A DNA stretch of 53,173 nucleotides from a virus (Duplodnaviria > Caudoviricetes), in the IMG/VR virus record IMGVR_UViG_3300005077_000024, positions 1 through 53,173 of that record; one strand, given 5' to 3'. Made by a program: the position numbers and the translations under genes. Under the pieces are notes generated by a model, which was not told the origin of the DNA, did no database searches, and saw only the letters and a list, made by a program, of their open reading frames with translations. This document shows, piece by piece, positions 1,803 to 36,462 of this stretch (its first letter is position 1; each line of letters begins with the position of its first letter).

Positions 1803-2240
1803 ATGTCAACCGCTCTCCAAGACACTATCCGAGACAGTCTGGTCGAGACTGGTGGCAACGTGCGCGCCACCGCCATGAGACTGGGTGTCTCTGAGGAGTA
1901 TGTTCGTCAGCAGAAGGAGGTCGTACCGGCTCCTGGCCCTGTGCCGACGAACCCAGCCGTATACCGGCTCTTGGACTCTACGGTCAAGTCTCTGCAGGCA
2001 TCAGTCGACGCCGCAGAACTAACAGGTAACCAACTGGTCAGACTGCTCGGTCTGCTGCTCGACTACGACGCGCGTGTGCAGACCATGTCCCGGCCGCTCA
2101 TGTCTGTGAACAACACTACTCAGACAGTTAACATGTTGGTCCAGCGCATGGACTCACTGACGACCGAGGAACTAAAAAGTCTGGCCCGTGCCAAGCCGCA
2201 GATTGAAACGCACGTACAGGTGATTGACGTTGATGTTTAA
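1803..2240 (+). CDS. terS: Probable terminase small subunit
   Basis: N-terminal HTH (NVRATAMRLGVSEEYVR), helical middle, directly upstream of and overlapping terL. Confidence 0.65.
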   Translation: MSTALQDTIRDSLVETGGNVRATAMRLGVSEEYVRQQKEVVPAPGPVPTNPAVYRLLDSTVKSLQASVDAAELTGNQLVRLLGLLLDYDARVQTMSRPLMSVNNTTQTVNMLVQRMDSLTTEELKSLARAKPQIETHVQVIDVDV

Positions 2241-3945: not shown

Positions 3946-4069
3946 GGGGAGTTCACCTCTGGGAGCTGAGCCGAAGCCGTCGAGCGTGGCTGGTATGGGT
4001 ATGGAAGCCGGTGGCCCTGTTGGGCCGTTCAAACGACGGACGCCACCTCCGCCTCCTGCGAGGAGATAA
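3803..4069 (+). CDS. Small Pro/Met-rich coiled-coil protein
   Basis: GAGGAG RBS; EEMRSRLDSLEARLSALEG heptads; stop abuts the portal RBS; overlaps the terL tail. Confidence 0.6.
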   Translation: MDPAMMGMAGPGAGLADSPLPEEMAPVDPIEEMRSRLDSLEARLSALEGSSPLGAEPKPSSVAGMGMEAGGPVGPFKRRTPPPPPARR

Positions 4070-4070
4070 C

Positions 4071-5855: not shown

Positions 5856-5856
5856 C

Positions 5857-7215: not shown

Positions 7216-7913
7216 TGATGCCAGTCTTTCCTCCAACCGTGAAACCTAACTATAGACAGCCTTCGTGGGCCGTTCCGTGGGAGCCACCCAAGAAGCCCAA
7301 TGTGGGGGATGTGCCGGCGAACGTTCTGTACGGTACCTACCACCTGGCGATGCCGTACCTGGACCCTGAGACCCAGAAGAGCTCAGCGTCCTGGCTGGCT
7401 ACTCAGGCACCGAAGAGGTTCGGTAAGTACATGGAGCACCCATGGAGAACCTCACCTGAAGCGTCTCAGCCACAAGCGCCAGGGGAGTCTTACCTGACTG
7501 TCGACCGCCTGAACAAAGCGCTGGAAGCACTGGACCCGCGCAACGTGTTCAACACGATCACTGGCCGGCAGATAGCATCACCTGGGGCTGAAGAGCGGGC
7601 CTACAACTACTTCCAGGAGCAGGGTGGAGGCGCTCCGCTGGCCTGGTTGAGAGCCTACCTGCAGACAGCAGCAGATGCTATGCCGGATGCTCAAGGCAAG
7701 TTGAAGCCACGCTCTGTTAGGTTTGGGGCACTCTCCCACTTGCAGACTCTGGAGCAGGAAGTCCAACAGAACCAGGCGCTGCTGCCATACCTGACCCTGG
7801 CCCAGAACCTGGTGAACCCACTCCTGCAAGGGCAGGCACCCGAAGGTGGTGGAGTGGGGTATACCCGAGCGGCTCCCGTTCCGAAGTTGGAGAAGAACCC
7901 GTGGCTGACATAG
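7215..7913 (+). CDS. Hypothetical protein, possible internal virion protein
   Basis: 232-aa ORF with GGAGG RBS, coupled to the upstream stop. Confidence 0.7.
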   Translation: MMPVFPPTVKPNYRQPSWAVPWEPPKKPNVGDVPANVLYGTYHLAMPYLDPETQKSSASWLATQAPKRFGKYMEHPWRTSPEASQPQAPGESYLTVDRLNKALEALDPRNVFNTITGRQIASPGAEERAYNYFQEQGGGAPLAWLRAYLQTAADAMPDAQGKLKPRSVRFGALSHLQTLEQEVQQNQALLPYLTLAQNLVNPLLQGQAPEGGGVGYTRAAPVPKLEKNPWLT

Positions 7914-8092
7914 TCAGTATGGTGGATGCGTACACCAAAGCACTGGGTACCTGGCAGAAGGTCTTCGGTGGGGCTAAGCCCAAACCACCGAAGGTTGAAG
8001 AACTGCCAGAACCTGCTGCTATTCCGCGACTACCGGATTTCGTGGTGAGAGATTATGTCCAAGATTGGACCGCCGCCGACCGTCGATATTGA
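7901..8092 (+). CDS. Possible small hypothetical protein
   Basis: GTG with GGAG upstream; fills the gap before the giant ORF and overlaps it by 38 nt. Confidence 0.4.
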   Translation: MADIVSMVDAYTKALGTWQKVFGGAKPKPPKVEELPEPAAIPRLPDFVVRDYVQDWTAADRRY

Positions 8093-11000
8093 AAAAGAGC
8101 GGCCCGTGCCCCCGCCACCGCCGGCGGCTCCTACGGACAAAGTGATGCTGGTTCCTCCTCCCGGGACTGGGGGGAATGGTAATGGCGGCCTACGCCCACC
8201 GCCACCTCCCCCCAGTCCAATAACGAAGGCGAGGCTGGGACCTCCACCTGAGGACTGGACTCCTACCCGTACTGCATTGACAGCGCCGGGCAGTCCTCCT
8301 ATATCTACACCCGAGACGGGGACTACTACTACCACTGCTCCTACTGCTGGTGCTGAGGGACCTCCGTCTATTCTTGGAGAAGAGGTTCCAGTAGGGACCT
8401 CGGAGACCCCAGAGTTTGAGGTCCAGCCTCCTACGGTCGTGCCTGCGGATATAGTACCCAAGCACCCACGCGACCTGGGGTTCCCGGACGTAGAGTCCAA
8501 GAACCCTCTGGAAAAGTGGGCCTACGAGGGTTGGACCCAACTAGACCAGGCCTGGTGGGGCTACATCCAGGAACATGCTACCCGACGGTGGGAGCAGTTT
8601 TTGGCTGTCAAGGATGAGCAGCGTGCCTATGAACCCATCACCCCGGCATCCTTCGGTGATGTAGTTCTTAACGTCTTGGAGCATCCTATTACGCGCAAGT
8701 TGAACGCGGCCCTTGCGCTGTGGAACGTACCCGCAGAGGCTGAGGAGGTTCTTCTCGGTAGTGCCTTCTACAACCAAGAGCGGGACTGGATGGGTGTGCG
8801 TACTCCTGCGGAGCAGCGTGCGTGGGCTGCTTCTATGTTCGTTACATACAGTGGCCCAGAGGCAAGGCGTGATCTGTACAAGAGGATCCGCGCAGAAGGG
8901 GATAACGTCACCGATGCGCGTATCGAAGAACTGGCTGCTGATGTAGTAGAAGAGTACGGCAGCATGTGGAAAGAGATGGTCGGCCAGGTGGCCTTTGACC
9001 CTCTCCAGATTGTGGACATGGTTTCTGGCTCTGTAAGCAAGTTGACAAAGTTGGCAGCGTTCGAGAGGGAAGTCACTACACTAGATCTGCGGCCTACTCA
9101 GGAGTTGAGGAAACTGTGGGTAGAAGCAGGTACTCGTGGTGGTCAGTTTAGATACGAGATCAATGCTCTGGACAAGGCCAAGGCTGCGGTGATGCCGAGG
9201 CTACCGGAGACTATGCGATACCAGGCCCTGGGTGAGGCGTCCCAGGTGGTGGAGAACGAAGCAGGCCAAGTACGCCATCTGGTTGAAGCCAGGCTGAGGA
9301 GAGCTGGTCTAGAGCGAGGTACTCCTGAGTGGGTGGAGGCGTTCAACCGGGAGTACAGCAACACCATGGGTGGTGTGATGGCCCAGTGGACACGCCTAGC
9401 AGATGACGACCCAGAGATAGTCCGCCAGGCGGCTGAGGCATTCCAGGAGACTGTTCTGGGGCGGGTGCCCTCAAGTAGGGCCGGCAGACGTGCAGCTATC
9501 ATCCTCAAAGAGATGCTTGTTGATGATGAGGGTAACATTGGGGACTTGACCAAGATGCTAGACCTCGGCAAGCGCGAGGGCTGGCAGGCTGCAGAACTCG
9601 CAGATGCGTGGGGGGCCAAAGCCCAGAAGGTCATGGAAAAGCTTATTCCAGACCCTCCTGGGATGTGGGGCGCCACACGAGCAGTGCAGGCTATCTTGCG
9701 GAAGCGCCAGCCTATTGACAAAGTGTTCTCCCGCTTGTACATGGGGATGAGTATTGGCTACCCTGTCCGCAATATGATGGACAACATAGCAAGAGGCTTC
9801 CTGGAAGGGTTTGCTGATGGAGCCTCTGAAGCACGCATGCGGGCTCTCGATGAGATCGTAGGCAGCCGCGTAAGGGTAGCTCACAAGGGTATCGGACCTG
9901 CGGGTACACAGGAGCGCCCAGGGTTTACTACTCTGGGTATCTGGCTGGGTAACAAAGGGGAAGAGATCTCCTCAGCCCATATCGTCCATAGTGCTCGTGA
10001 GTTTGCTATTAAGCATCTGGCTCCAAAGGCTTTGCTCGAGGTTGAAGTTCCAGCTAGTGCCTCTGCGGAGATGCGCCACTGGCTGGATGCTCGGATGTCT
10101 AGAATCTCGAGACTCGGACCTCAGGATGTAGAAGTACTCAGAGACGAGATTATGGACTACCTGGGGCATCTGGGTGTCAAAAAGGATGCCCAGGTGACCA
10201 TGCGCCCATGGGCTCAGCCGGGGTCTGACCTTGAAGAGTTGCTAGGTAATGTTCCTGGGTTACAGGAGGATATCGAACGTGCAGCACGCGAGGCTGGGTC
10301 TGACCAAAAACTGTACGTCCGCAAACTACGAGAACTACAGCGGAAGTACGGCCAGCGGGTCAAGCAAGTCACCGAGGCAGTTCAGGATGTCCCGATTGGA
10401 CCTGCAAAGGGAACTATGGCAGGTACCGCTACGCGGCAGGCCGGTGCCATCATCACCAACGAGCAAGAGCTTGAGGAGCTTGCAGCTCAACTGGCAGCGC
10501 ACGAGGCTAGTATCTACCGGTCCCGTGCTATGGCCATGGCCTCGGCACTCACTGGCCCCCAACCGCAACTTGCGCTGAAGCAGATCCAGGAGTTCGAGGC
10601 GAAGTGGCTCTCTACTGCCTCGGAGATAAAAGGTCGGCAGGTGGAGTTGTGGGGGAAAGCCCTCAAGGGTGATCTCACAGTTCAGGAGTACAAAGAGCAG
10701 TTGCTGAGGATGTATGCCTCAGCACACAACTTTGTGGATGATGGTTACAGTAAGGCTATTGCAGACCTCTGGTCAGGCTACAGGGTAGTCAACCAGGTGG
10801 ACGAAGCAGGGCCGCTCAGTGTACTAGCCAGAGCCTTGGGTGAGGAGTTTGCTGCTATTGGCAAGTACTCAGTCAAGGTGCCAGGAGAAGAAGTTGCGGC
10901 AGATGCTTCTGTGCTGTATGCACGTCTGCAACTCCACGAGATCAAGGGGAGCCCCAGTCTAACCAACTTCCTGAAAAAGCACCATGGTAAAGGACTAGAG

Positions 11001-14000
11001 CAGTTCACACCTAAGGAGAGGTTTGAGCTACTCAACTCTCTCAGACAGGCTCGTGGGGCTGAACCTTTCGAGAATGGTACGGCTCTGATGGAGCACTACC
11101 GCCAGCGGGTCCGTGTGGGTGAGGCTTTGGCACGGAAGCCCTTTTTTGAGCCTATGCGTCCTGTGCCTCTGAGGCCACAGGGCTACGAAATGGGGGACGC
11201 TGAGTGGTATGGCAAGGGGGTGCTGTGGCAGCGACCTCCTACTGGGGACCCAAGCAATCTCTACTCTTGGCTTACTCCTACTACAGAGACTTTGGTAGAC
11301 CATCCTAAGGCACCTGGTGGTGGTTCAGGTGCTGCATGGGAGGCCTGGTACAGGAAGCAGCCTGGGGTCACTCAGGAAGAGATGGAGTTTACTGGACTGC
11401 AGGACTATCTTGCCCTCCATAAGGGGGACAAGTTGTCCAGGGATGACATCAGGAACTTCCTAGATACTCACCGCCGGAACTTCAAGTTGGTAGGGACCTC
11501 AGGGTATAAGCCGTGGTCCCTATTCCCATCTGCTTCAGATAGCTACGAGATAGTGCTGTTTAGCCAGCCTGGTATGATAGGTTCTGCCTCCGAGGTCCAC
11601 TGGGCGACCAACTCACCTGTCGTATTCCATACACGGTTCCAGAGAGTAACCGATCTTGATGGTAGAAGGTTGCTTGCTGTAGATGAAATGCAAAGTGACT
11701 GGCACCGGGCTATGGAGAGCTCCCCTCTACTCACTCCTGACCAGAAGCGTCTGGTTGAAGAGATGGGTGGACGTAACCTCCCTAATATAGCTTTAAGTCA
11801 TGAAGAGATGTACGCCGCACGTGGGGTACGTATAGAGGGAGATTCCATCACAGTAGATGGTATAGGTACCCTGGGGGTGAAACGCAAAGACTCTAGGTAC
11901 TGGAATCAGGATGGATTTCTACGTACAGCCCAGGCGTATGTAGCCGAGAGGATGCTCCTCCCTACACCTCCTGAACTCAAGCCCAGGGTGGTTATGTCGA
12001 TAGAAATGGAGGAGCCCTTTGACATCTTCGACGCTACTATCCGGCTTACATATCCGGATGGTACGTGGAAGGATGCTAACATGTACCAACTCCATTCTAT
12101 AGTATCTAGGTACTATGAGGTCTCCGGCAAGTTCAGCAAAGTCGGGTCCGCAGAGTTGTTCCCCTGGCCAGACGGTAAAGTGTCGGTGCTGAGTTACGAT
12201 AATACCGGGATGCCTAGATTGCATCTTGAGAAGGTGGACCCTGACTACGCTATCAAGTTTGCAGAGGCACTCTCTCTTCTGAACAGGCTCGAGCCCGCTC
12301 CGTGGGCTGACAACGCTTGGAAGAATGTTGGTCTACGGTACCTCTTGGAGAGAGCGGCTGGTGAGGGCCTCGATGGGGTAGTTATTACCCCTGGCAGAGA
12401 GCAGGTGCTTCGCTATCTTCCCACTAGGGCTAATGGATGCACCCACGTTACCTACTACAAGACACAAGGAGACAAGTATAGGGTCGACTACGCATACCGC
12501 CCAGGGTGGGAAGATGTAGTCTTCAGGACGCTAGACTGGAAGCAGCTAACAGAGTTCCACCCAGAGGTCGACCCGACGAAGATCCAGGGGAGTACGGTAT
12601 TCGACCGCCTGGAAGCAGGGGAGCGGGTCACTCTCACAATAGATGAGGTTGCTGAGGCTCTGGTCAACTCAGACTACTTCATTACCCAGCACGACACTGA
12701 CCTCAAGAAGATGGCCGGTGGCCTGGAGTACCAGTACGACAGGGACATCCCAAGCAGGCTTGCCAAGATAGCCAAGAAGATGGGTATGGAAGTAGAGGAC
12801 GGGATCCTCGCTGGCCCCGAGGACCTCGCCCGTCAAGGTGACCCAAACCAGTTAGTACAGTTCAAGGGGGTTTACTTCACCCCTGAGGCCAAGAGCACCC
12901 TTAAAGAAGTTAACTTCCCAATGTGGCAGACCGCTGGTCCCAGGCCAATGGCGGATCTGCTTACACCTAACGCTGAGTTGGCTTTGCGCGGAAAAACGCC
13001 GGGCCGTGCCTCAGGTGAAGTGTGGTTGAAGTGGTTCCATAACCAGCCAGGCCGGCTGGAGCGAGAACTGCGAATTAGTGGTATGGAGGACTTTCTCAAG
13101 GAAGCCAAGGGAACTCTCACCGAGGCAGAAATTCTTGAGAACATCCGGGCCCGCACAGTACGGACGGTGGCTGTCACAGTACCTACTGGACCTACTCGAC
13201 GGCATGGACTGTACCTTGAGTATACAACTTGGAAGGGCATGGCAGGCAGTTACCGGGACTACGAGGAGGTTCTCTTTACTGCCCCAGATCTGAAACCAGT
13301 TCCAGATTATGGTAGTGCCCACTGGCTTGACGAGCCACAGCCTGACCCTGCACAGATTGCTGCCTTCGAGGAGTGGAGCCGTAAGCACGGCCAGGAATTT
13401 GAGTATCTGTACGAGTATTGGCACAACCATCCAGCACCTTTGAGTTCAAGGGGTATGAGTGCTAGGGAAGCTCTCGACGGGTACATGCAGGAGAACAATG
13501 CACCAGATGGTTTCGAGAGGTGGTGGTACGAATCCACCACTGGTGAGTTAGCTGAACCTGATGTGGACGTTGAGCTGGAAAACCTAACCGAGACGGAGGT
13601 TCTGGCCCACGCACGCTCGACTAAGGTGTGGGATGGTGAGGGTGGCCGGTGGAAGGTGCTGGAGGAGACCCAGTCAGACTACCATCAGAGGGCTGTTGGA
13701 GTCGAGGGTGGTGGTTACATCCCTGAGACCCCTGCAGAGGTGAGTGCTGCAGAGTCTACTGGGCAGGCACTTGTAGAACGGGCCAGCTCTCTCAGAACTA
13801 CCTTGAGAGACAACCGTGTGCTTGGCCTCTTCACCGAGCGTGTTGCAGATAGAGAGCAGACGGTTCAGGAAGTTATTAAAGCTTTGGAGCGCCTAGGTGT
13901 GTACTACACACCTACTCCTGGTACTAGTCTTTCTTGGGAGGTTAGGTTAGGCAAGAACAAGGCTCTAGTAGCCACTATGCCTATAACCTCCTCATGGGAG

Positions 14001-17000
14001 CCAGACTACCCACTGATGCCTTCTCTGCCCCCTGTTATTGGTGACTGGTCTGAAGTGGAAGTTATACTCCCTCAGAACCATACTCGAGGAGCCCTCTCTC
14101 TACTGACCGATCGCTTTCTAGGGAACCGAGTAAGGTACAGGTACCAGGGACGGGAACTGAGCATCGGTGAGTTGCGGAATGTCTTCGAACCTCTCAACAC
14201 GAGGTTGTGGCCTCCGCGAGCTCGGATACTCTCTACCAAGCAAGGTGATGTGGCACTTGTGCCTGTGCATGATGTACTTCATGCTGTCCCTGCAGAGAGT
14301 CTGGCAGGGATTCCGCAAGAGCGGTGGGGCCTAATCCGGGAAGAGCTGCGCACCACCCCACCTTCACAGCCAGTAGAAAGGGCTGTATGGGACAGGACCT
14401 GGCCCGAGTTAGGCTTGCGCTGGATGCTCATGCGGGCTGCTGAGGATGGTGACAAGGGCATTATCATTATCGACTCTGCTGAGCACTTCCGGCGGTATGG
14501 CACGGAAGAGAGCAAGTTTTTCCAGACACTCTACGACAAGACTCTGCCTAAGGAGTTGGAGCGCATTGGCAAGCGGTATGGCGTCACGCCTAAGAAGGTG
14601 GCGGTGCAGCCATACAATGACGAGATCCAGGCCAAGTTGCAGCAGGAGGCAGTAGCAAAAGGTGACAAGGCCCTCAAGACTAAGGTACTTCCGCAGGAGT
14701 ATCTGGGTCTGGAGATCACCCCAGAGATGCGCACCGACCTGCTAGGTAAGAAGCCGCTGCCTCTGTTCCAGACCGTAGAAGGAGAACTTGTTCCTCCGCC
14801 CCAGCGGCTCAATGCCTTAGTCGGTCCCCAGACAGTTTGGTGGACAGACCGCCATGACTTTATGCTGTATGGCACCTATGAGCAGGCCCGGGCGGCACAG
14901 CTTCCACGGGCCGCTAGGAACTACACCTTCTGGGTAGAGCCTGGCACTAACCGTACTGTGTGCACTCGTGGCAGCAAGTTCCACAGTGCTGATAGGTTAG
15001 GGCTGCCTGAAGGTACCCGGTTAGCAGAAGGGGCCCATGTTGGGGACAAACTCATCATCAGGCCTCACAACAGAATCTGGAGGGACTTCCGGGCTAAGGA
15101 GCACGATCTGGGGTTCTTGGACATCCTGCTTAACTTCGAGGATGCTCCACCCAATACCTATGTAGAGTGGGGAACTTTAACTCCCCAGCCTCTAGAGCAC
15201 TTTGTTACTAACACCGCAGAGGCAGTGGGAGAGCCCTACACCTTCAAGCAGATGGAGAAGGACATCTACCGGTACACCCACTCTACTGAGCAGACCAAAG
15301 CGCTAGTAACAGTTGCTCGGTGGTATGCGGGTGCACGGGCTCTCGCAGGCCTAGAGAGTGGCAATGCGTGGTTGCGCGAGTTCCTGTCTGGTATTACTAC
15401 CGGTGACGGAGTGACCAGCCTTCTCAAGCTTGCGAACTTCGATGCTGCAGTTACAGCGCTATCTGGGAGTACACCTTATAACCGCTGGATGCTTCTCAGG
15501 CAGTTTGACTACACAGAGCCTGCTACTATTCTCCATGAGATTCTGCACCAGGTCTTTGACTCTGCTCCACTTGCGTCTAAGCGGACTCTGCTGGAAGAGT
15601 TTACCCGGATGTACCCGGGCCTGAGCTACTATGATACAGTAGAGTACATAGTCGAGACTTTCGCTGCCGAGAGGTTAATGAGGTACCGGCTGGACTACGA
15701 CTCCTTCAAAGACAAAGTACCTCTCGTGGCTAAGGACTTGTATGACGCTCTGTATGTCATAGCCAAGACTTCCGACGATATCTCGGAGCGGGTGGCTATG
15801 CACACTCTGCGGAAGCCCAGCAGGGCAGCACGGGAGGTAATGCAGAAGCTCTTCCTGGGTGGCATGCTTGGACAGGAGACGCGAACTGTAGGTGGAGCAA
15901 CTACTAACACTATACCTTTCTTGTTCCAGTCTGAGGATGCCTACCGGGTATTCGACTCCAACATAGAGCGTGCTCTGGTCAACCCCAAAAATCCGGGCCG
16001 TGCCGATGGCCTGGCTTGGCTTGCCTGGCTGAAGAAGCAGCCAGGTGTGACTGCTCGTGAGTTGAACCTTACAGGGTTGGAGGACTTTCTTGATGTGCGT
16101 GAGGGGGTTCCTCTTACCAGGGCAGAGGTTGTAGAGGCTGCTAAGAGAGGCAGGCCTGAGGTTCATATTATTCAAGAGCCTGCAGTCCACCACGAGTTTT
16201 CCATACGGGACTACCAGGCTTTTACTTCTTGGCCTTTGATGCAGAACCACTACCGCGAGGTAGGCTTCTCGATGCCAAAGGAGTATCTAGTCCCTAACAT
16301 CAGTACCCAGTACCACTGGGAGCCTGACAGCAAGATCGTCTTCCATGTCCGTATGAAGGATGCCTATGATGCTCAAGGGCGTAAGATTCTTCTTGTGGAA
16401 GAGATCCAAAGTGACTGGCACAAACTGGGAGAGCAGTACGGCTACAGAGACTCTGTGCCTAAGGGTGTAACCTATGCCGGTGACCCTCCAGTATCCCGGG
16501 CGATCTGGCAGAAAAACTACCCTACCGTGGGCCTCCGCTATGCCTTACGTGAAGCGGTTGCTGGTGGCTATGACGGGGTTGCTATCACTGGTGGCATCGA
16601 GCAGTTCAAGCGGTACTATGCCGTTGACATGGAGGGTATAACCAAACTCACTATCATAAGGGATGATATACTGTATGGCAAGGCTGGGGAGACTTGGTAC
16701 CGTCTGATTACAGAACAGCGGCCTGGATACTTGACTAGCAACCTTACTCTAATGGATGATGCTGACCTTGAGTTCTTTGTCCATCTGACATCCTCTCAGA
16801 AGGACACTCTCCGTGCAGGCAAGCTACTAGTCTTTGAGGGTGATGAGTTAGTCGAGTTGATCCGGAGCCGTGCTCGTAGAATCTACGGGAGCGAGAAGCT
16901 GGCCCACTTCCAGAAGATGTACGATGAGGACTACCCAGAGCGCCTCCGGAAGCTGGCTACTGAGTATGGGCTGCAGACCGAAAAGGTGGTTCTCAGGCCA

Positions 17001-20000
17001 GCGCCGAACATTGTGTCTGATGTAGAAGGTACAGTCACCTACTTGACACCTGAAGCCAAGCAGCAGATTAAGAGCGTCAAGCCCTTGCTGTTTCAGTCGG
17101 ACCAAGCACCTCCAGCCTTGCGTGCTGTGGAAGAAGGTAAGGTCAACAAGCAGTACGTAGTCTCTTTGCGAGATATGGCTTTGCAAGAGACTAGTACCTT
17201 TGCTAAGTTAGGGGACATGATCGCAGAGATCCTCAAGCCAAAGGCCAAGGTCATGTACCTGAGCGGAACCGACGAAGGCCTGGTGGTAGTAGGCCGACCG
17301 GAGGCTCAGGCTATCTGCTTGCAGACTGTGAGTGCGTTTGACCTGCCTATGGATACTAAGGTAGTATGGTACACCTACCTTAGTGACACCCACACCGACC
17401 AGTTCACTATGCGGTCTGGAACTCTTGAGGAGTTGCTCGAAGATCCCTTCGGCAAGCCTGAGTTAGTAGCTCCTCCATCTAACTTGGCTCCTGTGTCAGA
17501 AGCCAAGGTTGAGTCTAAACTGGCTGTGATGGAGGCAGAGGGGTTCTACAACATAGGTGGGGAGAGTGAAAAGATCCTCCTGCCGGACAGCGTTCTAAGC
17601 CCGTCGGAGAACGTCTACCACTTTGTGTATGACCCAGACAGTGGTACTATTCTGTTCGGCTCTCTGGGCAGGTCCCGGGAGCAACTACAGCAGGATGTGA
17701 GGGCTCTTAGGGAGTCTGCAGCTCTGATAGCTCCGAAGCCTGAGGCTGTGTCTGAGGTTCCTACAGTTGCTGGTATGTGGGTGGACGGTCAGTTGATAGT
17801 AGAGGCTAGGTCCAAGGAGCTGACCGCCCTGTTGAAGAAAGCGGGCTTTCCTAATGCTACCGAGGTAGTAGACCTCCGCAAGGATACTATTAAGCCCCTA
17901 GGTGCTACTGAGGCAGTCGCCCGACGCAAGAAGGCAAAGACTCTACCAGAGGAGGCTCCTCCTCCACCAGTAGCAGTAGAAGAGCCTGCGCCGTCAGTCC
18001 CTGCAAGCGTAGTGGCGTCAGAACCTGACTATGGTAGCATTCTACAAGAGGAGGCCATCTGGACCTCTGTTTACGGTCCACTCAGTAGGCTGTGGGGTAC
18101 CGGCAAGACTACTGCAGAGGCAGTCAGAAGCAAGTGGAGGACTGACCTTCCAGGTAACCTGTGGGTCTACCAGACTAAGCCTAGTGGTGTAGTAGTACAG
18201 AGTTCGTGGGAAGACCGGTTCAGTGCCATAGACGCAGCGGTCAAGCATGGCTTCCCAGCAGACGTCCCTGCTGTATGGGTGGGTGAGTTGGATGGGGTCA
18301 GATACCAGAAGTCTGGCACGCTACAGAAGCTGGCGACTGGGGAGGATCCTCTACCTGCACCTAAACCAGAGCCTGATGTAGGGTTCCCGCCGAAGACCAA
18401 AGTGGTTGACCTGGATGAAACAAAGTCCACCTTGGAGCAGGTGGCTGAGGGGTCAGCCACCAGGCCTGTAAAGTCCCAGCAGCCTATTGCTGAGGAGATT
18501 CCTCCAGCCCTGGATCCCAGTCTGCTGAGTACCGTGCCCAAAGGATCACGGCTTCCTTTTGAGGACTACGCCGACGAAGAGCAGTTGCGTGGATTGCTCC
18601 TACCAGATGGCAGCATGGCTATTGTAACACCTGGACCTCATAATGTAGCAGATGGAACAGGTGTAGAGCACATAGCAATTATGCAGCTTCTGAACGTGTC
18701 TGAAGGTGAAGTCCTCCAGTTCCACATGGACGTCACGAAGAACAAGATAGCTTACCTGTTTGTGGACTCCACCCACCCGGTAACAGGTCCGGAGCTTCAG
18801 CCCTTCTTGGATGCTGGTGTTCCGAAAGATGTGAGAGTGGTGCGTGCTGTCCATGACATAGTAGAAGAAGGAGAGCTGGGTGACATAGTAGCAGGCCGAG
18901 GTTGGGAGCCAGAGGTCCGTGCGACCCCAGCAGAACCCCGGCAGCCTTCTGCTGGATACCTGTGGTCGGACGAAGATGGAGAGCTCATTTACAGCACCTT
19001 CGACCAGATGCAGAGTGCGGCTCAACTACCACAGTGGCCTATGGTCTCGATGAGGAAAGTAGGGAAGCAGATCACGTTCACTCGCGGGGCCATGCACTCA
19101 GGTACCAGTGATGAAATCGTCCGCGGGGTATTCCGTCTAGATGGAAGACTAGTGATTACACCTGGGATGAAGACCTTCAAGACACCCTTCAACGATCCAC
19201 AGGTGCAAGAGTACCTGGAACTGCTGACGAAGAGCCCTGGGGTGCCAAGGACTGCAGTGATTGAGTGGCCCGGGACCCCTCGACTCCCACTGTTTGGGGA
19301 ACCACCAACGCCGGCAGTCCCTCTGAGGCCAAGGGCAGTTGAACTACCTCCACCGCCTGCACCACCTGTGATCACAGCCAGCCGGAAGCAGTTCTGGGAG
19401 GAGGTTGGGAAGGTAGGGAAACCAGTCAGAGTTGAACTGGGTGAGATCACTGCAGTGCTAGACCCTGTTGAAGTCCGGAAGGGCTACACAGGTGTTACTA
19501 TTATACCTGGCCAGCCAACGGTCGTACACGGCGAGGTCACGACAGACGATCTGCGCAGGTTGCAGGACTGGGGATGGCCAACTAACTCACCTGCAGTACT
19601 GGAGAGTCTGGGTAGAACAGGGAAGCTGGGGGACCTCCTCTTCGACTTGCGTCCACGGGAGCCCTTTACACGAACCCAGTTCGTAGACTCTCTCATCACA
19701 GACTTCAGGCTGAGTACAGATAAAGTCCAAGATGCTATGGCTATCATGGACCGTCTAGCCAGTGCCTGGGCTAAGGACTATAATGCCAAGCCGGCTGACT
19801 GGTGGATTACGTTCATCCAGAGTGTGCAGAGACAGGTCCCAGCCGAGTGGAAGTACCTACTGGAAAAAGGGCCCGTGAAGAAAGGCGGCGTGTGGTTCGA
19901 CCCTGAGGATGCACGGGCCGTCATTTTTGCCTTCCAGAAGGCGGACCTGTCTACAGTCTTCCATGAGGTAGGGCACATCCTGCGCAGGCAGTTGCGCGAT

Positions 20001-22409
20001 GAAGATACTCGGATTATTGAGTCTTTCTTTGGTGTGCAGAAGGGGGTGTGGACCGAGGCTCAGGAAGAGTCCTTTGCAGACCACTGGAGTGCCTATCTGA
20101 TGTCCGGTAAGGCTCCTACACCAGAACTGCAGTCTGTGTTCGAGCGGCTCAAGCACTGGTTGACTGAGATCTACTCAGCCTTACTGGGTAGGGCTCCAAG
20201 GCCTGACATGCCCACAGAGATCCGGTCGGTGTTCAACCGTCTGCTTACTGGAGAGTATGGTGGTGTAGAAGAAGCCGCTGCTAGAAGCAGATGGTACACA
20301 GAAGACGCTCTGAAGGAGGCAGCTGACGGTGCGGTTTCTCCTGCTAACCTCAATAAGGTAGGCTTTCGCTACTACCGGGATGCCGATGGGTCCGTTAAGT
20401 GGACTAGCATGCCTGGGAGTGGGGAGGTTACCAAAGACCAGTTTGAGTCCTGGATGTTAGCAGAAGGAAAGATGCTGGAGAACAGCCTCGTGCCAGAAGC
20501 TCAAATGGCTCGTAGAGCCTCGAAGGCAGCCAGGGTTGCTCCAGACATGCCGATACCTAGTTCAGAGGATGCAGCTCGGCGTAATGGATATACAGCGGCC
20601 CAGTTGATAGATCAGGTGATTGCTCAGTCCGATGCGATGCTTGATATACCAGCCGCAGCTGTCCCTTCAGAGCGTGGACTGCCAGATGAGTGGGAGAGGT
20701 TTATCAACCAACTCCACGGCAGGTTGTCTGAGACATACATGGTAGCGTCTAAGTACGCTACTGCAGCTCGGAATGAGTTGCTGCTAGACTACGGAGACCG
20801 GCGAGTTATGGATCCCTTCCTCCAACTGGTCTTCCCGTGGGGCTACTGGCACTCTCGGGCGGTTCCTAGTTGGATGTGGATTCTAGCACGCCACCCAGCC
20901 GCAGTCGCTGTGTACGCACGGTTCCGGCAGACAATGGAGAAGATGAATGCTGGTGACCCTGAGATCCCAGAGTGGGCCCGTGGCCAGATCCCTCTGCATC
21001 TGCCAGGCATGCCAGAGCCCGTTCTGTGGGATATGGAGTCTACTCTGGTTCCTGTGCAAAGTATCTTCGACACCTTCGACGACCCAGACCGTGAGAAGGA
21101 CGGGTTCGGCCGCGCGGTGGCTGCCTTGGGTAAGTATGGACCCGCTACGCATCCACTGCTTATGGCTGCGTATGCTGCCGAGCGGTGGCTGCTGCATGGT
21201 GACACAGAAGCCTCACGGTCGTTTGGCTACCTTGGGCCTTCTTCACGAGCGTTTGCTAGCGTTACAGGTTCCCCGGTGGAGCCTTGGTTATGGCTACGTG
21301 AACCTCAGACAGGTCAGGTGCAGCCGTTTACAGGTGGAACGAAGTGGCAGTTAGGGAAGGCAGGGAGATACTCAGCAAGACACCTACCGCAGGAATATGC
21401 GGTCGAAGCGGCTGCTACTAGGTACGGGCCTGTGTTCGAGCAGGCGCTTACTAAGGTGCGAGAGATGCAGCGGGCACCGATCCTACTGAGTCTCCTGACC
21501 GGCCTGCGGCTCACGCCGCGCCCTGGGTGGGAGAAGGATCTTACTGTGCTGTCTGCACGGTACGCATCTAACCTGGACAAAGGGATGACCAGCCAGCAAG
21601 CAGCAGAGGATGTACTGTCAATCGCCCCCTGGCTAAGTACCGCCTGGATGGCATATGACACAGACCGTGAGAGGACCGCGGCGCTGGCTTATGATGTGTT
21701 CGACCGTATGCCACCCGGAGCCCCTACCGAGGACTTTCTTACAGCGGCGGGGCTGTCAAGGGCAGCACGAGACCAGTTTTATGCAGACAAAGGAGACCTA
21801 ACGGGATGGACTAGAGCTGACTATGAGGCGTTCATGCGCGGTGTGGTCAACCTAGCACAACTTCTGAAGTGGCCAGCCTCTGCTACTATGAAGGAGTGGG
21901 AGAAGGCCCGGAAGGTGCGTGGGGACCTTATTGACCAGGCGAATAAGGAGTACCCGGAAGCCCAGCCAGCACAGCAAGAGTACTACCGGCTGAAGGCTGT
22001 AGGGGATACTGCAGGGGCAGACGCCCTTGCGCAATCATCCAACTTGTACAACTACTGGAACTGGCTGAACGAGAGAACGCTCGAGGACCCACTACTACTC
22101 AAGTACTACGCAGACCCTGAAGATGTTGACCGGATGGCCAAGACAATCATGTACCGAACTGCACAAGCTACCTGGGCTAACATACTAGAGATACAAGATG
22201 AGTACTACAGAACTGGACAGCAAAAATCCTTCCTGCGTGCCCATCCTGAACTCATTGAGTACTGGAAGTGGAAGGGACCTGCGTTAGAGCAGATCACTGC
22301 AGCACTGGCGGATGCCCGGAAGCAGGCGGGTGCTGGTGCTGTAAAGCCACCATTGAAGTCACCTGCACAACCTAACCTGGCGCAACGCGCCGCTATGCAA
22401 GAGTGGTAA
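8055..22409 (+). CDS. Giant (4784 aa) polyvalent-type, probably ejected virion protein
   Basis: Uninterrupted 14.3-kb ORF; three E-x-QSD[WY]H modules; HEILH (~15534) and STVFHEVGH...ESFA..W..YL..GKAP (~19962) zincin-like motifs. Confidence 0.85.
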   Translation: MSKIGPPPTVDIEKERPVPPPPPAAPTDKVMLVPPPGTGGNGNGGLRPPPPPPSPITKARLGPPPEDWTPTRTALTAPGSPPISTPETGTTTTTAPTAGAEGPPSILGEEVPVGTSETPEFEVQPPTVVPADIVPKHPRDLGFPDVESKNPLEKWAYEGWTQLDQAWWGYIQEHATRRWEQFLAVKDEQRAYEPITPASFGDVVLNVLEHPITRKLNAALALWNVPAEAEEVLLGSAFYNQERDWMGVRTPAEQRAWAASMFVTYSGPEARRDLYKRIRAEGDNVTDARIEELAADVVEEYGSMWKEMVGQVAFDPLQIVDMVSGSVSKLTKLAAFEREVTTLDLRPTQELRKLWVEAGTRGGQFRYEINALDKAKAAVMPRLPETMRYQALGEASQVVENEAGQVRHLVEARLRRAGLERGTPEWVEAFNREYSNTMGGVMAQWTRLADDDPEIVRQAAEAFQETVLGRVPSSRAGRRAAIILKEMLVDDEGNIGDLTKMLDLGKREGWQAAELADAWGAKAQKVMEKLIPDPPGMWGATRAVQAILRKRQPIDKVFSRLYMGMSIGYPVRNMMDNIARGFLEGFADGASEARMRALDEIVGSRVRVAHKGIGPAGTQERPGFTTLGIWLGNKGEEISSAHIVHSAREFAIKHLAPKALLEVEVPASASAEMRHWLDARMSRISRLGPQDVEVLRDEIMDYLGHLGVKKDAQVTMRPWAQPGSDLEELLGNVPGLQEDIERAAREAGSDQKLYVRKLRELQRKYGQRVKQVTEAVQDVPIGPAKGTMAGTATRQAGAIITNEQELEELAAQLAAHEASIYRSRAMAMASALTGPQPQLALKQIQEFEAKWLSTASEIKGRQVELWGKALKGDLTVQEYKEQLLRMYASAHNFVDDGYSKAIADLWSGYRVVNQVDEAGPLSVLARALGEEFAAIGKYSVKVPGEEVAADASVLYARLQLHEIKGSPSLTNFLKKHHGKGLEQFTPKERFELLNSLRQARGAEPFENGTALMEHYRQRVRVGEALARKPFFEPMRPVPLRPQGYEMGDAEWYGKGVLWQRPPTGDPSNLYSWLTPTTETLVDHPKAPGGGSGAAWEAWYRKQPGVTQEEMEFTGLQDYLALHKGDKLSRDDIRNFLDTHRRNFKLVGTSGYKPWSLFPSASDSYEIVLFSQPGMIGSASEVHWATNSPVVFHTRFQRVTDLDGRRLLAVDEMQSDWHRAMESSPLLTPDQKRLVEEMGGRNLPNIALSHEEMYAARGVRIEGDSITVDGIGTLGVKRKDSRYWNQDGFLRTAQAYVAERMLLPTPPELKPRVVMSIEMEEPFDIFDATIRLTYPDGTWKDANMYQLHSIVSRYYEVSGKFSKVGSAELFPWPDGKVSVLSYDNTGMPRLHLEKVDPDYAIKFAEALSLLNRLEPAPWADNAWKNVGLRYLLERAAGEGLDGVVITPGREQVLRYLPTRANGCTHVTYYKTQGDKYRVDYAYRPGWEDVVFRTLDWKQLTEFHPEVDPTKIQGSTVFDRLEAGERVTLTIDEVAEALVNSDYFITQHDTDLKKMAGGLEYQYDRDIPSRLAKIAKKMGMEVEDGILAGPEDLARQGDPNQLVQFKGVYFTPEAKSTLKEVNFPMWQTAGPRPMADLLTPNAELALRGKTPGRASGEVWLKWFHNQPGRLERELRISGMEDFLKEAKGTLTEAEILENIRARTVRTVAVTVPTGPTRRHGLYLEYTTWKGMAGSYRDYEEVLFTAPDLKPVPDYGSAHWLDEPQPDPAQIAAFEEWSRKHGQEFEYLYEYWHNHPAPLSSRGMSAREALDGYMQENNAPDGFERWWYESTTGELAEPDVDVELENLTETEVLAHARSTKVWDGEGGRWKVLEETQSDYHQRAVGVEGGGYIPETPAEVSAAESTGQALVERASSLRTTLRDNRVLGLFTERVADREQTVQEVIKALERLGVYYTPTPGTSLSWEVRLGKNKALVATMPITSSWEPDYPLMPSLPPVIGDWSEVEVILPQNHTRGALSLLTDRFLGNRVRYRYQGRELSIGELRNVFEPLNTRLWPPRARILSTKQGDVALVPVHDVLHAVPAESLAGIPQERWGLIREELRTTPPSQPVERAVWDRTWPELGLRWMLMRAAEDGDKGIIIIDSAEHFRRYGTEESKFFQTLYDKTLPKELERIGKRYGVTPKKVAVQPYNDEIQAKLQQEAVAKGDKALKTKVLPQEYLGLEITPEMRTDLLGKKPLPLFQTVEGELVPPPQRLNALVGPQTVWWTDRHDFMLYGTYEQARAAQLPRAARNYTFWVEPGTNRTVCTRGSKFHSADRLGLPEGTRLAEGAHVGDKLIIRPHNRIWRDFRAKEHDLGFLDILLNFEDAPPNTYVEWGTLTPQPLEHFVTNTAEAVGEPYTFKQMEKDIYRYTHSTEQTKALVTVARWYAGARALAGLESGNAWLREFLSGITTGDGVTSLLKLANFDAAVTALSGSTPYNRWMLLRQFDYTEPATILHEILHQVFDSAPLASKRTLLEEFTRMYPGLSYYDTVEYIVETFAAERLMRYRLDYDSFKDKVPLVAKDLYDALYVIAKTSDDISERVAMHTLRKPSRAAREVMQKLFLGGMLGQETRTVGGATTNTIPFLFQSEDAYRVFDSNIERALVNPKNPGRADGLAWLAWLKKQPGVTARELNLTGLEDFLDVREGVPLTRAEVVEAAKRGRPEVHIIQEPAVHHEFSIRDYQAFTSWPLMQNHYREVGFSMPKEYLVPNISTQYHWEPDSKIVFHVRMKDAYDAQGRKILLVEEIQSDWHKLGEQYGYRDSVPKGVTYAGDPPVSRAIWQKNYPTVGLRYALREAVAGGYDGVAITGGIEQFKRYYAVDMEGITKLTIIRDDILYGKAGETWYRLITEQRPGYLTSNLTLMDDADLEFFVHLTSSQKDTLRAGKLLVFEGDELVELIRSRARRIYGSEKLAHFQKMYDEDYPERLRKLATEYGLQTEKVVLRPAPNIVSDVEGTVTYLTPEAKQQIKSVKPLLFQSDQAPPALRAVEEGKVNKQYVVSLRDMALQETSTFAKLGDMIAEILKPKAKVMYLSGTDEGLVVVGRPEAQAICLQTVSAFDLPMDTKVVWYTYLSDTHTDQFTMRSGTLEELLEDPFGKPELVAPPSNLAPVSEAKVESKLAVMEAEGFYNIGGESEKILLPDSVLSPSENVYHFVYDPDSGTILFGSLGRSREQLQQDVRALRESAALIAPKPEAVSEVPTVAGMWVDGQLIVEARSKELTALLKKAGFPNATEVVDLRKDTIKPLGATEAVARRKKAKTLPEEAPPPPVAVEEPAPSVPASVVASEPDYGSILQEEAIWTSVYGPLSRLWGTGKTTAEAVRSKWRTDLPGNLWVYQTKPSGVVVQSSWEDRFSAIDAAVKHGFPADVPAVWVGELDGVRYQKSGTLQKLATGEDPLPAPKPEPDVGFPPKTKVVDLDETKSTLEQVAEGSATRPVKSQQPIAEEIPPALDPSLLSTVPKGSRLPFEDYADEEQLRGLLLPDGSMAIVTPGPHNVADGTGVEHIAIMQLLNVSEGEVLQFHMDVTKNKIAYLFVDSTHPVTGPELQPFLDAGVPKDVRVVRAVHDIVEEGELGDIVAGRGWEPEVRATPAEPRQPSAGYLWSDEDGELIYSTFDQMQSAAQLPQWPMVSMRKVGKQITFTRGAMHSGTSDEIVRGVFRLDGRLVITPGMKTFKTPFNDPQVQEYLELLTKSPGVPRTAVIEWPGTPRLPLFGEPPTPAVPLRPRAVELPPPPAPPVITASRKQFWEEVGKVGKPVRVELGEITAVLDPVEVRKGYTGVTIIPGQPTVVHGEVTTDDLRRLQDWGWPTNSPAVLESLGRTGKLGDLLFDLRPREPFTRTQFVDSLITDFRLSTDKVQDAMAIMDRLASAWAKDYNAKPADWWITFIQSVQRQVPAEWKYLLEKGPVKKGGVWFDPEDARAVIFAFQKADLSTVFHEVGHILRRQLRDEDTRIIESFFGVQKGVWTEAQEESFADHWSAYLMSGKAPTPELQSVFERLKHWLTEIYSALLGRAPRPDMPTEIRSVFNRLLTGEYGGVEEAAARSRWYTEDALKEAADGAVSPANLNKVGFRYYRDADGSVKWTSMPGSGEVTKDQFESWMLAEGKMLENSLVPEAQMARRASKAARVAPDMPIPSSEDAARRNGYTAAQLIDQVIAQSDAMLDIPAAAVPSERGLPDEWERFINQLHGRLSETYMVASKYATAARNELLLDYGDRRVMDPFLQLVFPWGYWHSRAVPSWMWILARHPAAVAVYARFRQTMEKMNAGDPEIPEWARGQIPLHLPGMPEPVLWDMESTLVPVQSIFDTFDDPDREKDGFGRAVAALGKYGPATHPLLMAAYAAERWLLHGDTEASRSFGYLGPSSRAFASVTGSPVEPWLWLREPQTGQVQPFTGGTKWQLGKAGRYSARHLPQEYAVEAAATRYGPVFEQALTKVREMQRAPILLSLLTGLRLTPRPGWEKDLTVLSARYASNLDKGMTSQQAAEDVLSIAPWLSTAWMAYDTDRERTAALAYDVFDRMPPGAPTEDFLTAAGLSRAARDQFYADKGDLTGWTRADYEAFMRGVVNLAQLLKWPASATMKEWEKARKVRGDLIDQANKEYPEAQPAQQEYYRLKAVGDTAGADALAQSSNLYNYWNWLNERTLEDPLLLKYYADPEDVDRMAKTIMYRTAQATWANILEIQDEYYRTGQQKSFLRAHPELIEYWKWKGPALEQITAALADARKQAGAGAVKPPLKSPAQPNLAQRAAMQEW

Positions 22410-23047
22410 AGGAGATCACAGTGGACACGTCGGTAATCGCTCCAGTGCCTGCGGGAGTAGAAGGGCAAAACCCCTCCACCCCAGTGACACCTGCGGAGCA
22501 AGTCACCGAAGATACCAGTGAGTTGCTGCCTACCCCAGAGGCGGTAGCTCCTCAGCCGGAGCGGGCTTACGATTGGCAGCGGGCTTACCAAACGCTCGCT
22601 GCCCAACACGCAGAGACCCAACGCCGGCTGGACCAGATGGAAGAGGCTGGGCTATCAGAGGAAGAGGTTACTAGGCGGCGCTTTGAGCGTGACCGGCAGG
22701 CTCTGCAGGACCAGCAGCGTCAGATGGCTGAGTTGATGTATGCTACTGACCTGCATGCTCTGTACTCCAAGTTCGTGCCGGCAGCGGCTATCAAAGGGGC
22801 TGATCCCAGTGAGTGGCAGACGTCCGTTCTCAGCTACATGCAGAATGAGAACGCGAAACTGCGGAAGCAACTGGAGACCCTGCGAGGAGCCAAGCCTGGA
22901 GAGACCGCTCAGAAGGTCACAGCCGGTGGGCCTACTACACCAGCACCGACCAAGAGTGCCTGGGACCTCACTCCAGAAGAGCGTGAAGCTCTGCTTGCGA
23001 AGGCCCGCATGGGCCGGCTGAAGGCAGAGGACCTACCTACGGGATAA
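22403..23047 (+). CDS. Probable capsid scaffolding protein
   Basis: Acidic Pro-rich N-terminus, coiled coils, immediately upstream of the major capsid gene. Confidence 0.7.
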   Translation: MVKEITVDTSVIAPVPAGVEGQNPSTPVTPAEQVTEDTSELLPTPEAVAPQPERAYDWQRAYQTLAAQHAETQRRLDQMEEAGLSEEEVTRRRFERDRQALQDQQRQMAELMYATDLHALYSKFVPAAAIKGADPSEWQTSVLSYMQNENAKLRKQLETLRGAKPGETAQKVTAGGPTTPAPTKSAWDLTPEEREALLAKARMGRLKAEDLPTG

Positions 23048-23057: not shown

Positions 23058-24071
23058 ATGGCTACAACCTATGGAGCGCTTACCTATGAGCAGCGCTCGT
23101 TCTACGAAAGTGTGATGCTGCAGCGTGCGAAGCCGGCCTTGACCTACTTCGCGCTGGCGCAGAAGGGCTACTCGGTCGCGGTGCCTGAGCACCAGGGCAT
23201 GACTATCGACTGGCGTCTGATGGCCGCCCTTCCGGTGGTAACTGACTCTCTGACTGAGGGCCAGGTGCCTGACCCACATGATGTCTCCATCAGCCAGGTG
23301 ACTGCGACGGTCGCGGCCTACGGCGCCTACGTGCGCTACACACGTGAGGCGGCTATGGCCGGCATCGACAACCTGGCCGCAGCGACCTCTGAAGCCCTGG
23401 GTGAGCAGTCCGGCGACAGCCTCGACCAGCTCACACGTGACGTCCTGGTGGCCGGCTCAGTGGTCCAGTATGCGAGTTCGGCTACCCAGCGTGACCAGGT
23501 CACCGCTGCGATGGACATGACCGCGGCGGAGATCTGGGAGGCAGTGACCACCCTCAAGGTGGCCAAGGCCCAGCCCCTGGAAGATGGCCTGTTCGTCGGT
23601 ATCGTACATCCATATACGGTGTACGATATGTTCACTGATAGCACGATCCAGAACCTGATGTTCTACTCGAAGGACAGGGGTGAGCGCAATCCCCTGACCC
23701 GCGGGTACATCGGTGACTGTCTGGGCGTGCGCTGGTACGAGACGGCGAATGCGAAGGTCTGGGCCTCCGCCGGTTCGGGCTCTGCGAATGTGTACGGTAC
23801 CTTGATCCTGGGCAAGAACGCCTTCGGTATCGGTGGTCTGGCTGGGTTCATGCCCGGCAACGTCCCGACACCGAGCAGCCAGGTTCAGGGTGATGCGAAC
23901 ACGCTGAAGGAAGTCCGGCCGCTGCGCCTGATCAGCAAGGACTTCGGCAGCGCCGGCGCCGACGACCCGCTGGAGCAGAAGGCGTCTCTCGCGTGGTACA
24001 CGACCTACGTGACCAAGATCCTGCGGAACCCGTTCATGGTCCGCATCGAGCATGGTTGCACCAAGGGCTAA
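23058..24071 (+). CDS. Major capsid protein, N4-gp56 family
   Basis: LTEGQVP, YGAYVRYT, GIVHP, GDCLGVRWYET, TLILGKNAFG, GADDPLEQ, MVRIE motifs; strong AAGGAG RBS. Confidence 0.92.
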   Translation: MATTYGALTYEQRSFYESVMLQRAKPALTYFALAQKGYSVAVPEHQGMTIDWRLMAALPVVTDSLTEGQVPDPHDVSISQVTATVAAYGAYVRYTREAAMAGIDNLAAATSEALGEQSGDSLDQLTRDVLVAGSVVQYASSATQRDQVTAAMDMTAAEIWEAVTTLKVAKAQPLEDGLFVGIVHPYTVYDMFTDSTIQNLMFYSKDRGERNPLTRGYIGDCLGVRWYETANAKVWASAGSGSANVYGTLILGKNAFGIGGLAGFMPGNVPTPSSQVQGDANTLKEVRPLRLISKDFGSAGADDPLEQKASLAWYTTYVTKILRNPFMVRIEHGCTKG

Positions 24072-34055: not shown

Positions 34056-34363
34056 GCCAGGAAGTATGGATGGTCGCGGCTGGTGTAGCCGCATCGCTTG
34101 TCACCACCCTTGCCGTCTGGATTGCCAGCCGGCTGGGGGTCACGCTGAGTTCGGCTGCATCTGCGTACCTGACCTATGCAGTGTGCTTGATCTGTGCGAT
34201 CGCCGCCAAGTTGGTGTCAGGTACCGGGTTCCCGACAGGTGAGATAGACGTGGTTGCCCCGGCTCTCGGGATCTGGTTCGTCGAGGTCCTGGGCACCGCT
34301 ACACTGTTCTACAATACAGTCACCAAGAAGACTACGCGCTTGGTCGCAAGGAGTACAGAATGA
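34052..34363 (+). CDS. Three-TM holin-like membrane protein
   Basis: Three hydrophobic segments and a basic C-terminus (KKTTR); GGAGG RBS. Confidence 0.6.
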   Translation: MSQEVWMVAAGVAASLVTTLAVWIASRLGVTLSSAASAYLTYAVCLICAIAAKLVSGTGFPTGEIDVVAPALGIWFVEVLGTATLFYNTVTKKTTRLVARSTE

Positions 34364-34800: not shown

Positions 34801-34809
34801 AGGTGAACC

Positions 34810-35087: not shown

Positions 35088-35138
35088 ACGTCCCCCACAC
35101 GCCACGCCTTGCACGTAGCGCACCAACGCCTAAGGTCT

Positions 35139-36460: not shown

Positions 36461-36462
36461 CG

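Follow-up and report, generated by a model that had tools for sequence, protein, structure and literature searches.

The window analysed here is a viral DNA record of 53,173 bases (IMG/VR record IMGVR_UViG_3300005077_000024, Caudoviricetes, estimated to be 70% complete), in which a giant open reading frame (ORF) lies between the terminase and putative portal genes and the major head protein gene (Table 1). Its 4784-amino-acid (aa) product is a very large multi-domain phage protein encoded among virion and packaging genes, as polyvalent proteins are. This product has exactly five copies of the tripeptide pattern [LM][FW]Q, each at the edge of one of three paralogous modules, as well as two HExxH motifs. 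A preliminary description of this DNA took the tripeptides for the cleavage code of a self-processing polyprotein, which would free individual effectors after injection. Comparison with relatives suggests that the tripeptides join an inherited part of the module to a glutamine that goes with one type of HExxH domain. A processing code read by that domain emerges from the sequence comparisons as the likeliest single explanation, one that we put forward tentatively.

Table 1. Features of the window that bear on the giant protein and its neighbourhood. Positions are nucleotides of the window; aa numbers are residues of the giant protein.
Feature	Position	Strand	Remarks
Terminase large subunit gene	2224-3945	+	PHROG 38, E 1e-83
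639-aa ORF in portal position	within 3936-7913	+	no family match
Two ORFs, 460 and 232 aa	within 3936-7913	+	no family in Pfam, PHROG or NCBIfam
Giant ORF, 4784 aa	8055-22409	+	polyvalent-type virion protein gene
LWQ, aa 1057-1059	11223-11231	+	about 10 residues upstream of the first helix of module 1
Module 1, aa 1060-1625	11232-12929	+	GNAT-like with inserts; ends FPMWQ
MWQ, aa 1623-1625	12921-12929	+	module 1 tail and module 2 leader
Module 2, aa 1626-2239	12930-14771	+	large inserts; ends PLPLFQ
LFQ, aa 2237-2239	14763-14771	+	module 2 tail
Region between modules 2 and 3	14772-15920	+	HEILH (aa 2494) at 15534-15548; ETFA at 15654-15665
LFQ, aa 2623-2625	15921-15929	+	low-confidence stretch just ahead of module 3
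Module 3, aa 2626-3014	15930-17096	+	shortest copy, predicted GNAT-like fold; ends KPLLFQ
LFQ, aa 3012-3014	17088-17096	+	module 3 tail, straight after the last helix
HEVGH-type domain, aa ~3940-4070	19872-20264	+	HEVGH (aa 3970) at 19962-19976; ESFA at 20067-20078
214-aa ORF	within 22403-23047	+	directly 3' of the giant ORF
Major head protein gene	23058-24071	+	PHROG 1357, E 1e-45

The five tripeptides and their placement at module edges stand as first described, being recovered by pattern count, tile BLAST, an alignment of the modules (A1) and a hidden Markov model (HMM) built from it. The residues that follow them are R, T, T, S and S, in agreement with the reported S or T at four of the five. 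From composition, 1.26 occurrences would be expected (Poisson P(>=5) = 0.0095) for this pattern, which was defined post hoc, after inspection of the data. Among 23 further ORFs of the window, 9171 aa in all, the pattern turns up once, and the putative portal protein, the scaffold candidate and the major head protein do not have it. Recombination 'linker' DNA at the five sites was considered and rejected, the shared DNA being the three codons only. HExxH, for which 0.11 occurrences would be expected from composition, occurs exactly twice, as HEILH and HEVGH, and the preliminary description was also right that E-x-F-A follows each of them (ETFA 36 residues after HEILH, ESFA 31 residues after HEVGH).

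The three modules (aa ~1057-1626, 1623-2240 and 2623-3015 by tile BLAST, A1 and the HMM) share E-x-Q-S-D-[WY]-H, a conserved motif of the module family's own. A profile of the three copies matched 8059 representative proteins among 1.84 billion at E <= 0.001, 4012 at 1e-10 and 18 at 1e-30, and viral contigs hold at least 481 module stretches. Pfam scans of 10 short members found no family in any, and the module is, on the evidence of these searches, a large family without a Pfam model among the members scanned. A tblastn search with module 3 gave one weak phage match, and a search with a typical family member gave three phage records, every one annotated 'hypothetical protein'; in Pelagibacter phage HTVC028P the module lies within gp34, amid internal virion protein genes. 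Module 3 was modelled with its flanks (aa 2600-3040), with a mean per-residue confidence score (pLDDT) of 76.3 and a predicted template modelling score (pTM) of 0.76. GNAT-family acetyltransferases make up most of the 50 matches listed for this model by VIA-align, GNAT chains scoring Z 6.6-9.2, a range called middling by the tool, with 6edw_A as the top GNAT match (Z 9.2, root-mean-square deviation 3.5 over 148 residues). Foldseek gave weaker matches to the PDB (best E 8.7e-3) and 25 matches to predicted viral structures at E <= 0.001, all of them uncultured or unnamed phage entries, several of which bear polyvalent-protein domain names. Pfam acetyltransferase models have no sequence match in the giant protein, and the GNAT core fold predicted for the modules is an assignment by fold alone. 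Encoded among virion protein genes and having a predicted GNAT-like fold, the modules are likely to be enzymes that are packed in the head and ejected.

Relatives of the HEVGH-type domain were found in 42 of about 650 local sequences, in 12 giants by word-index search and in 47 GenBank phage records; Pfam scans left the domain uncovered in every member scanned, and a PDB sequence profile search with the family gave nothing useful (best E 0.04, to TraO). In the A3 alignment all 11 sequences share H46, E47, H50 and E81 without exception. The model of the domain (mean pLDDT 64.6) has two strands, an HExxH helix (41-53) and a later helix (77-93) with the invariant Glu. With this conserved pair of predicted helices the domain is zincin-like in motif, of the gluzincin kind, and its model fits the minimal zincin core laid out in the main text of Iyer et al. 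2017 (PMC5512222). HEILH is a different matter: hhalign joined its region to the HEVGH family over 28 columns at a probability of 3%, a local alignment with that family scored 35, a value reached by 46 of 500 shuffles and not significant, and the ESM Atlas gave just unnamed clusters at 0.85 for the region. Its T-I-L-HExxH, with ETFA at similar spacing, makes it a plausible divergent copy of the zincin-like domain. The zincin-like motifs of the preliminary description are thus borne out for HEVGH by its invariant H-E-H-E, but are not supported for HEILH, which has no detectable relatives, or as regards the fold, which structure search did not confirm.

In relatives at viral loci the module ends in a conserved tail, h-D-I-T-P-E-M-K..G-x-P-L-F-x (43 distinct tails). 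A sample of 150 of the 4012 representative proteins at E <= 1e-10 gave 142 tails, 97 of which fit the tail pattern. In these the residue before the aromatic is L in 80, M in 16 and V in 1, and the aromatic itself F in 86, Y in 9 and W in 2, while the next residue is Q in 35, S in 23, A in 11, R in 7 and others in 21. Many tails lie at or near the C-terminus of their protein, in proteins without HExxH. The module also starts with a conserved F-Y-S segment, for which the giant has NLYS (module 1) and VFDS (module 3) as counterparts.

Enrichment of the motif at boundaries in homologs, proposed at the outset as a check, was found: [LM][FW]Q reaches 14.0 per 1000 aa in tail windows and 1.92 in the 45 residues ahead of module starts (tails excluded), compared with 0.06 inside modules and 0.29 elsewhere. 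In association counts that are raw and uncorrected for relatedness, here and below, the residue after the aromatic is Q in 25 of 27 tails ahead of the HEVGH-type domain versus 21 of 76 other internal tails (Fisher p = 2e-9), and in 15 of 65 terminal tails. Common ahead of the domain and less frequent at other internal tails, Q therefore goes with the domain and not with junctions generally. [LM][FY]Q stands at -31 to -44 from the first His of the domain in 35 of 43 distinct instances, although the A3 profile includes a few upstream columns that could slightly favour LFQ-bearing matches.

Outside tails, LFQ goes with the domain as well. With detected tails masked, 56 domain-bearing proteins (164,045 aa) have 72 copies of it, and 63 module-bearing giants that lack the domain (188,104 aa) have 17; each of the five other orderings of L, F and Q turns up 9-27 times in the domain-bearing set. 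After de-duplication, the LFQ sites of domain-bearing proteins were classed by context: 39 lie ahead of the HExxH domain, 9 at other module tails, 10 at possible undetected tails, 10 just ahead of a module start and 39 elsewhere. Density was then compared among module-selected representatives of at least 1000 aa, leaving out the 12 proteins that had been selected through the domain. LFQ outside tails numbered 29 in 96,431 aa (33 domain-bearing proteins) versus 13 in 172,377 aa (68 lacking it), a 3.8-fold higher density in the former, and at least one such site was present in 17 of the 33 versus 10 of the 68 (Fisher p = 2e-4). Eleven control patterns gave ratios of 0.6-2.1 in the same test, and the broader [LM][FWY]Q gave 3.1. 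A non-tail motif ahead of a module start was seen at 10 of 29 starts with the domain versus 1 of 117 without (p = 2e-7). Since both starts and ends are bracketed in relatives that have the domain, the two-sided bracketing of the modules in the window is typical of domain-bearing proteins. Free LFQ sites have polar flanks and no further consensus, and pairs of related proteins (P0154/P0156, P0058/P0026, P0087/P0039) keep LFQ though their flanks differ. That free LFQ sites are leftover scars of tails was rejected, as there is no excess of LFS without the domain (0.151 vs 0.124 per 1000 aa).

Some relatives have arrangements of their own. One (P0134) has at least 8 LFQ sites, including a recurring N-P-D-N-P-K-I-LFQ domain end and the doublet LFQVNEMPLFQ, and another (P0004, 7058 aa) has 5. 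A 4698-aa relative on an IMG/VR contig (L081:734-14830) has two modules, each ending PLFQ, and one HENAH domain with FQFQ before it instead of LFQ; LYQ lies nine residues from its C-terminus.

We propose that the five sites repeat a hydrophobic-aromatic-Gln boundary motif, typically LFQ and conserved by lineage, in a head-packaged polyvalent protein, and that this motif was built in two layers. L-F would be an old built-in part of the GNAT-like module, ending the tail TPEMK..G-x-P-L-F and probably fastening the C-terminus of the module onto its N-terminal F-Y-S segment; lineages with a HEVGH-type gluzincin-like domain would then have fixed Q next to it and added bare LFQ in polar linkers and before modules. 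The HEVGH-type peptidase would recognise LFQ and cut there, yielding six products from the giant: aa 1-1059, each of the three modules separately, the HEILH-bearing stretch between modules 2 and 3, and aa 3015-4784, the last retaining the peptidase. We infer the cutting itself, the scissile bond, the responsible domain and its timing. As the motif marks module edges only, such a code would free the modules and the parts between them, and not 'individual effectors' generally as first suggested. Judged from its sequence, the giant does have the layout of a polyprotein, with a short site repeated at domain junctions and a protease-like domain in the same chain. A broader claim, that LFQ is the cleavage code of an undefined zincin-like clade, that self-processing giants release a new, very widespread family of GNAT-like effectors, either within the head or after entry into the infected cell, and that the specificity of the peptidase evolved from the L-F tail, seems possible to us, with a little less assurance than the code itself.

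Besides the raw counting and the upstream columns of the profile, a number of observations weigh against a processing code. Comparison of the copies indicates that three of the five sites go back to a single feature, the tail that was copied when the module was triplicated; other domain boundaries of the giant lack the motif, only module edges being marked. P-L-F is kept in single-module proteins that have no peptidase, with Q in 23% of 102 tails there; L-F therefore has a role independent of cutting, and at the three sites it is probably, as the model of module 3 suggests, an inherited and structural part of the module. The giant's own HEVGH domain has LLE, not LFQ, 35 residues before its first His (YLLEKG, nucleotides 19854-19871), and the nearest LFQ-type site is 956 residues away. 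Zincin recognition usually involves the residue just past the scissile bond, and the residue after Q is not conserved, being S in 10, D in 7, G in 6 and R in 6 of 47 free sites. No relatives of HEILH were found by local phmmer, two word-index searches and scans of viral and metagenome contigs. For the HEVGH model, Foldseek returned no match at E <= 0.001, which leaves the fold of solved zincins unconfirmed; the best VIA-align matches (Z 5.5) are to unrelated chains, and rows of possible zincin type reach only Z 4.0-5.0 (3dl1, described merely as a putative metal-dependent hydrolase, 2l0r, 1yqy and 8sln). In a FastTree phylogeny of 83 module sequences the presence of the domain changes 19 times, and an independent-pairs sign test found just 3 supported pairs (median p 1) and was underpowered.

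Giants from cultured phages add to this side of the balance. Seven of them, chosen by the HExxH domain alone and totalling 17,357 aa, have 5 LFQ sites, with 0-2 occurrences of each permutation, and do not repeat the enrichment. LFQ is absent from four of the seven, including AF gp16, and three of the five sites are in Bbp10 of Bordetella phage BPP-1. According to the main text of PMC5512222, the virion RNA polymerase of phage N4, which has such a metallopeptidase domain, is packaged unprocessed. A predicted complex of the HEVGH domain with a 46-residue module 3 tail, run without controls, scored 0.00 and counts neither way. The cleavage-code reading of the preliminary description thus survives in part: Q and free LFQ do co-occur with the HEVGH-type domain, while three of the five sites are inherited tails.

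The same observations could be read as structure alone. P-L-F would then clasp the GNAT-like module, a similar hydrophobic-aromatic-Q element would start the HExxH domain, and the protein would stay whole, its HExxH domain acting on host targets or the cell wall. In the model of module 3 the final helix spans residues 400-408. The trailing LFQ comes next, within a segment whose pLDDT averages 70, and does not have the look of a free linker; disorder begins at residue 423, and alignments to GNAT chains extend to model residues 416-423. Isolated beta-bridges are predicted, with moderate confidence, at residue 35 (in VFDS) and residue 412 (the L preceding LFQ). These two residues probably pair, clasping the termini by holding the C-terminus to the F-Y-S segment, where secondary structure was taken from the DSSP string and the burial of L and F and the bridge partner were deduced from it. 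L-F conservation in tails of domain-less proteins and the unprocessed N4 polymerase agree with a structural role, as does FYQ or FFQ 31 to 36 residues ahead of the HExxH His in proteins without the module, namely Bbp10 of BPP-1 and that of Acinetobacter phage Ab9. Nevertheless, we regard structure alone as doubtful, for it does not account for bare LFQ in polar, unconserved linkers or for the near-confinement of free and pre-module LFQ to domain-bearing proteins, proteins without the domain show no LFS excess of the sort that tail scars would leave, and the LFQ leading module 3 borders a stretch where pLDDT drops below 50. Burial of the motifs in structural strands had been named beforehand as an outcome that would refute cutting; it applies in part, to the L-F of three sites, which is probably structural.

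Less probable than structure, and in our view unlikely, is a linear motif with some other job, which might dock to the head, the portal, a chaperone or the host, or be the site of a different protease, its link with the HExxH domain reflecting shared ancestry. The sites do resemble short linear motifs in polar linkers, the association could not be separated from relatedness in the independent-pairs test, the four ORFs near the giant gene lack a family assignment, and a protease might be encoded outside a record estimated to be 70% complete. Against this, the LFQ-to-His spacing of 31-44 residues in 35 of 43 instances ties the motif physically to the domain. Head-maturation proteases usually have portal, scaffold or head-type proteins among their targets. 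In the window, with the record about 70% complete, no protease family was found among the head genes, and the motif is absent from the putative portal, the scaffold candidate and the major head protein, which gives no support to the giant as the substrate of a head-maturation protease. Chance and paralogy, in which three sites came along with the copying of the module and the remaining two arose by coincidence, we consider very improbable even though the pattern was set after the data were seen and only two sites are independent of tails. Each of these two is no more than about 10 residues from a module start, their pre-module arrangement recurs in relatives almost exclusively with the domain (10 of 29 versus 1 of 117 starts), and the background is 0.29 per 1000 aa.

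Searches of the giant found no Pfam family at E <= 0.1, including the models derived from PMC5512222, and nothing in NCBIfam; PHROG gave a single match, at aa 3935-4096, to family 9880, whose function is unknown, and the gene has no DNA match among GenBank phages. The polyvalent-class Pfam families (ART-PolyVal, LPD, PBECR, MPTase-PolyVal) are absent from it and present in relatives that share the module or the HExxH domain, which carry PF18760, PF18809, PF18834, PF18838 and others. The four ORFs that flank its gene (639, 460, 232 and 214 aa) had no match in Pfam, PHROG or NCBIfam. By its translation, the N-terminus of the giant (window 8055-8450, aa 1-130) is proline-rich and of low complexity, with PPPP runs and a TTTT run. 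A sixth tail-like element, PLFG (window 19287-19298, aa 3745-3748), has P-L-F but no Q; it closes a small domain, and a proline-rich linker, PPTPAVPLRP...PPPPAPP, comes next. There is a further internal repeat, W-x-D...L-Y-x-T-x-x-Q...AAQLP, at ~14838-14910 (aa 2262-2285) and ~18960-19035 (aa 3636-3660), the copies of which align locally with a score of 53 that was matched by 0 of 500 shuffles; the first copy begins about 25 residues past the LFQ at aa 2237. Farther along the window, in 34000-53173, gene orientation changes from + to - at about 34-37 kb, where the sign of the GC skew flips as well.

Among the cultured-phage giants, the motif also has variants (FYQ, FFQ and MFQ), two of which stand 31 and 36 residues ahead of the His. 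Bbp10 has two LFQ sites (aa 167 and 587) and one FYQ (aa 766) between its annotated domains, namely LPD22 (41-138), PBECR1 (643-729) and the HExxH domain (His at 797), and another LFQ (aa 886) lies inside the HExxH domain. Limnohabitans phage DC33 (L089, PQ492659.1) has a 39-kb genome and a 3125-aa giant with the HExxH domain, like the podophages here; its taxonomy line reads Inoviridae, which looks like a mislabel.

The idea that metallopeptidases (MPTases) release the domains of polyvalent proteins, cited in the preliminary description as established, does go back to Iyer et al. 2017, where the main text proposes autoprocessing by the MPTase and reports that DdrB of phage P1 is processed (PMC5512222). 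Neither 'LFQ' nor an 'interdomain' motif appears in that main text, and our literature search found no paper on such an interdomain motif or on cleavage at such sites; a preprint on phi24B (10.64898/2026.04.10.717836) describes a 2811-aa polyvalent protein in virions, with no cleavage analysis in the passages concerned. Autoprocessing has thus been a proposal since 2017, with no site known from the main text of PMC5512222, and there is now a candidate site of three residues, statistically tied to one peptidase type, which makes the idea directly testable. The analysis also adds two families new to Pfam, the GNAT-like module (8059 representative clusters) and the HExxH domain of podophage giants such as that of BPP-1. 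If the motif is indeed cut, the domain maps and stoichiometry of ejected phage effectors would become predictable from sequence.

Several known systems share parts of this arrangement. The proteases T4 gp21, phiKZ gp175 and SPN3US gp245 reportedly process packaged internal proteins at short sites during head maturation. As there, a short, tripeptide-like site recurs here in a protein that would be packed in the head and later ejected; unlike there, no head protease was found in the window, the other head proteins lack the motif and the candidate enzyme lies inside the substrate. The 3C-type proteases cut the polyproteins of eukaryotic RNA viruses after Gln, and the rhinovirus 3C site ends in LFQ. 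The layout is the same, a long chain with an embedded protease and a repeated site ending in Q at the junctions, and the likeness is one of resemblance only: the candidate here has a metallopeptidase-like motif and no chymotrypsin-like fold. On the side of the modules, the model of module 3 aligns structurally with the GNAT fold of TacT and AtaT toxins, NatD and the C-terminal domain of ICL2, from which the module family differs in its additional N-terminal helical part, its large inserts and E-x-Q-S-D-W-H. The phage and conjugative-element polyvalent proteins in the main text of PMC5512222 are likewise multi-domain giants encoded among virion genes with an embedded HExxH domain, and families of that set (ART-PolyVal, PBECR1, LPD22/23 and others) occur in relatives of the window's giant. 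The GNAT-like module and the HEVGH-type domain, without a Pfam family in the members scanned, set the giant apart from that set, although the HEVGH type may be among the 12 MPTase clades of that work. BPP-1 Bbp10 was the sole BPP-1-like protein scanned for the module and lacks it, unlike the giant of the window. The genes for the giants of BPP-1-like podophages come after those for internal virion proteins and one with an endolysin annotation, and BPP-1 Bbp10, Pseudomonas phage AF gp16 and Xanthomonas phage CP2 gp25 carry the same HEVGH-type domain as the giant of the window.

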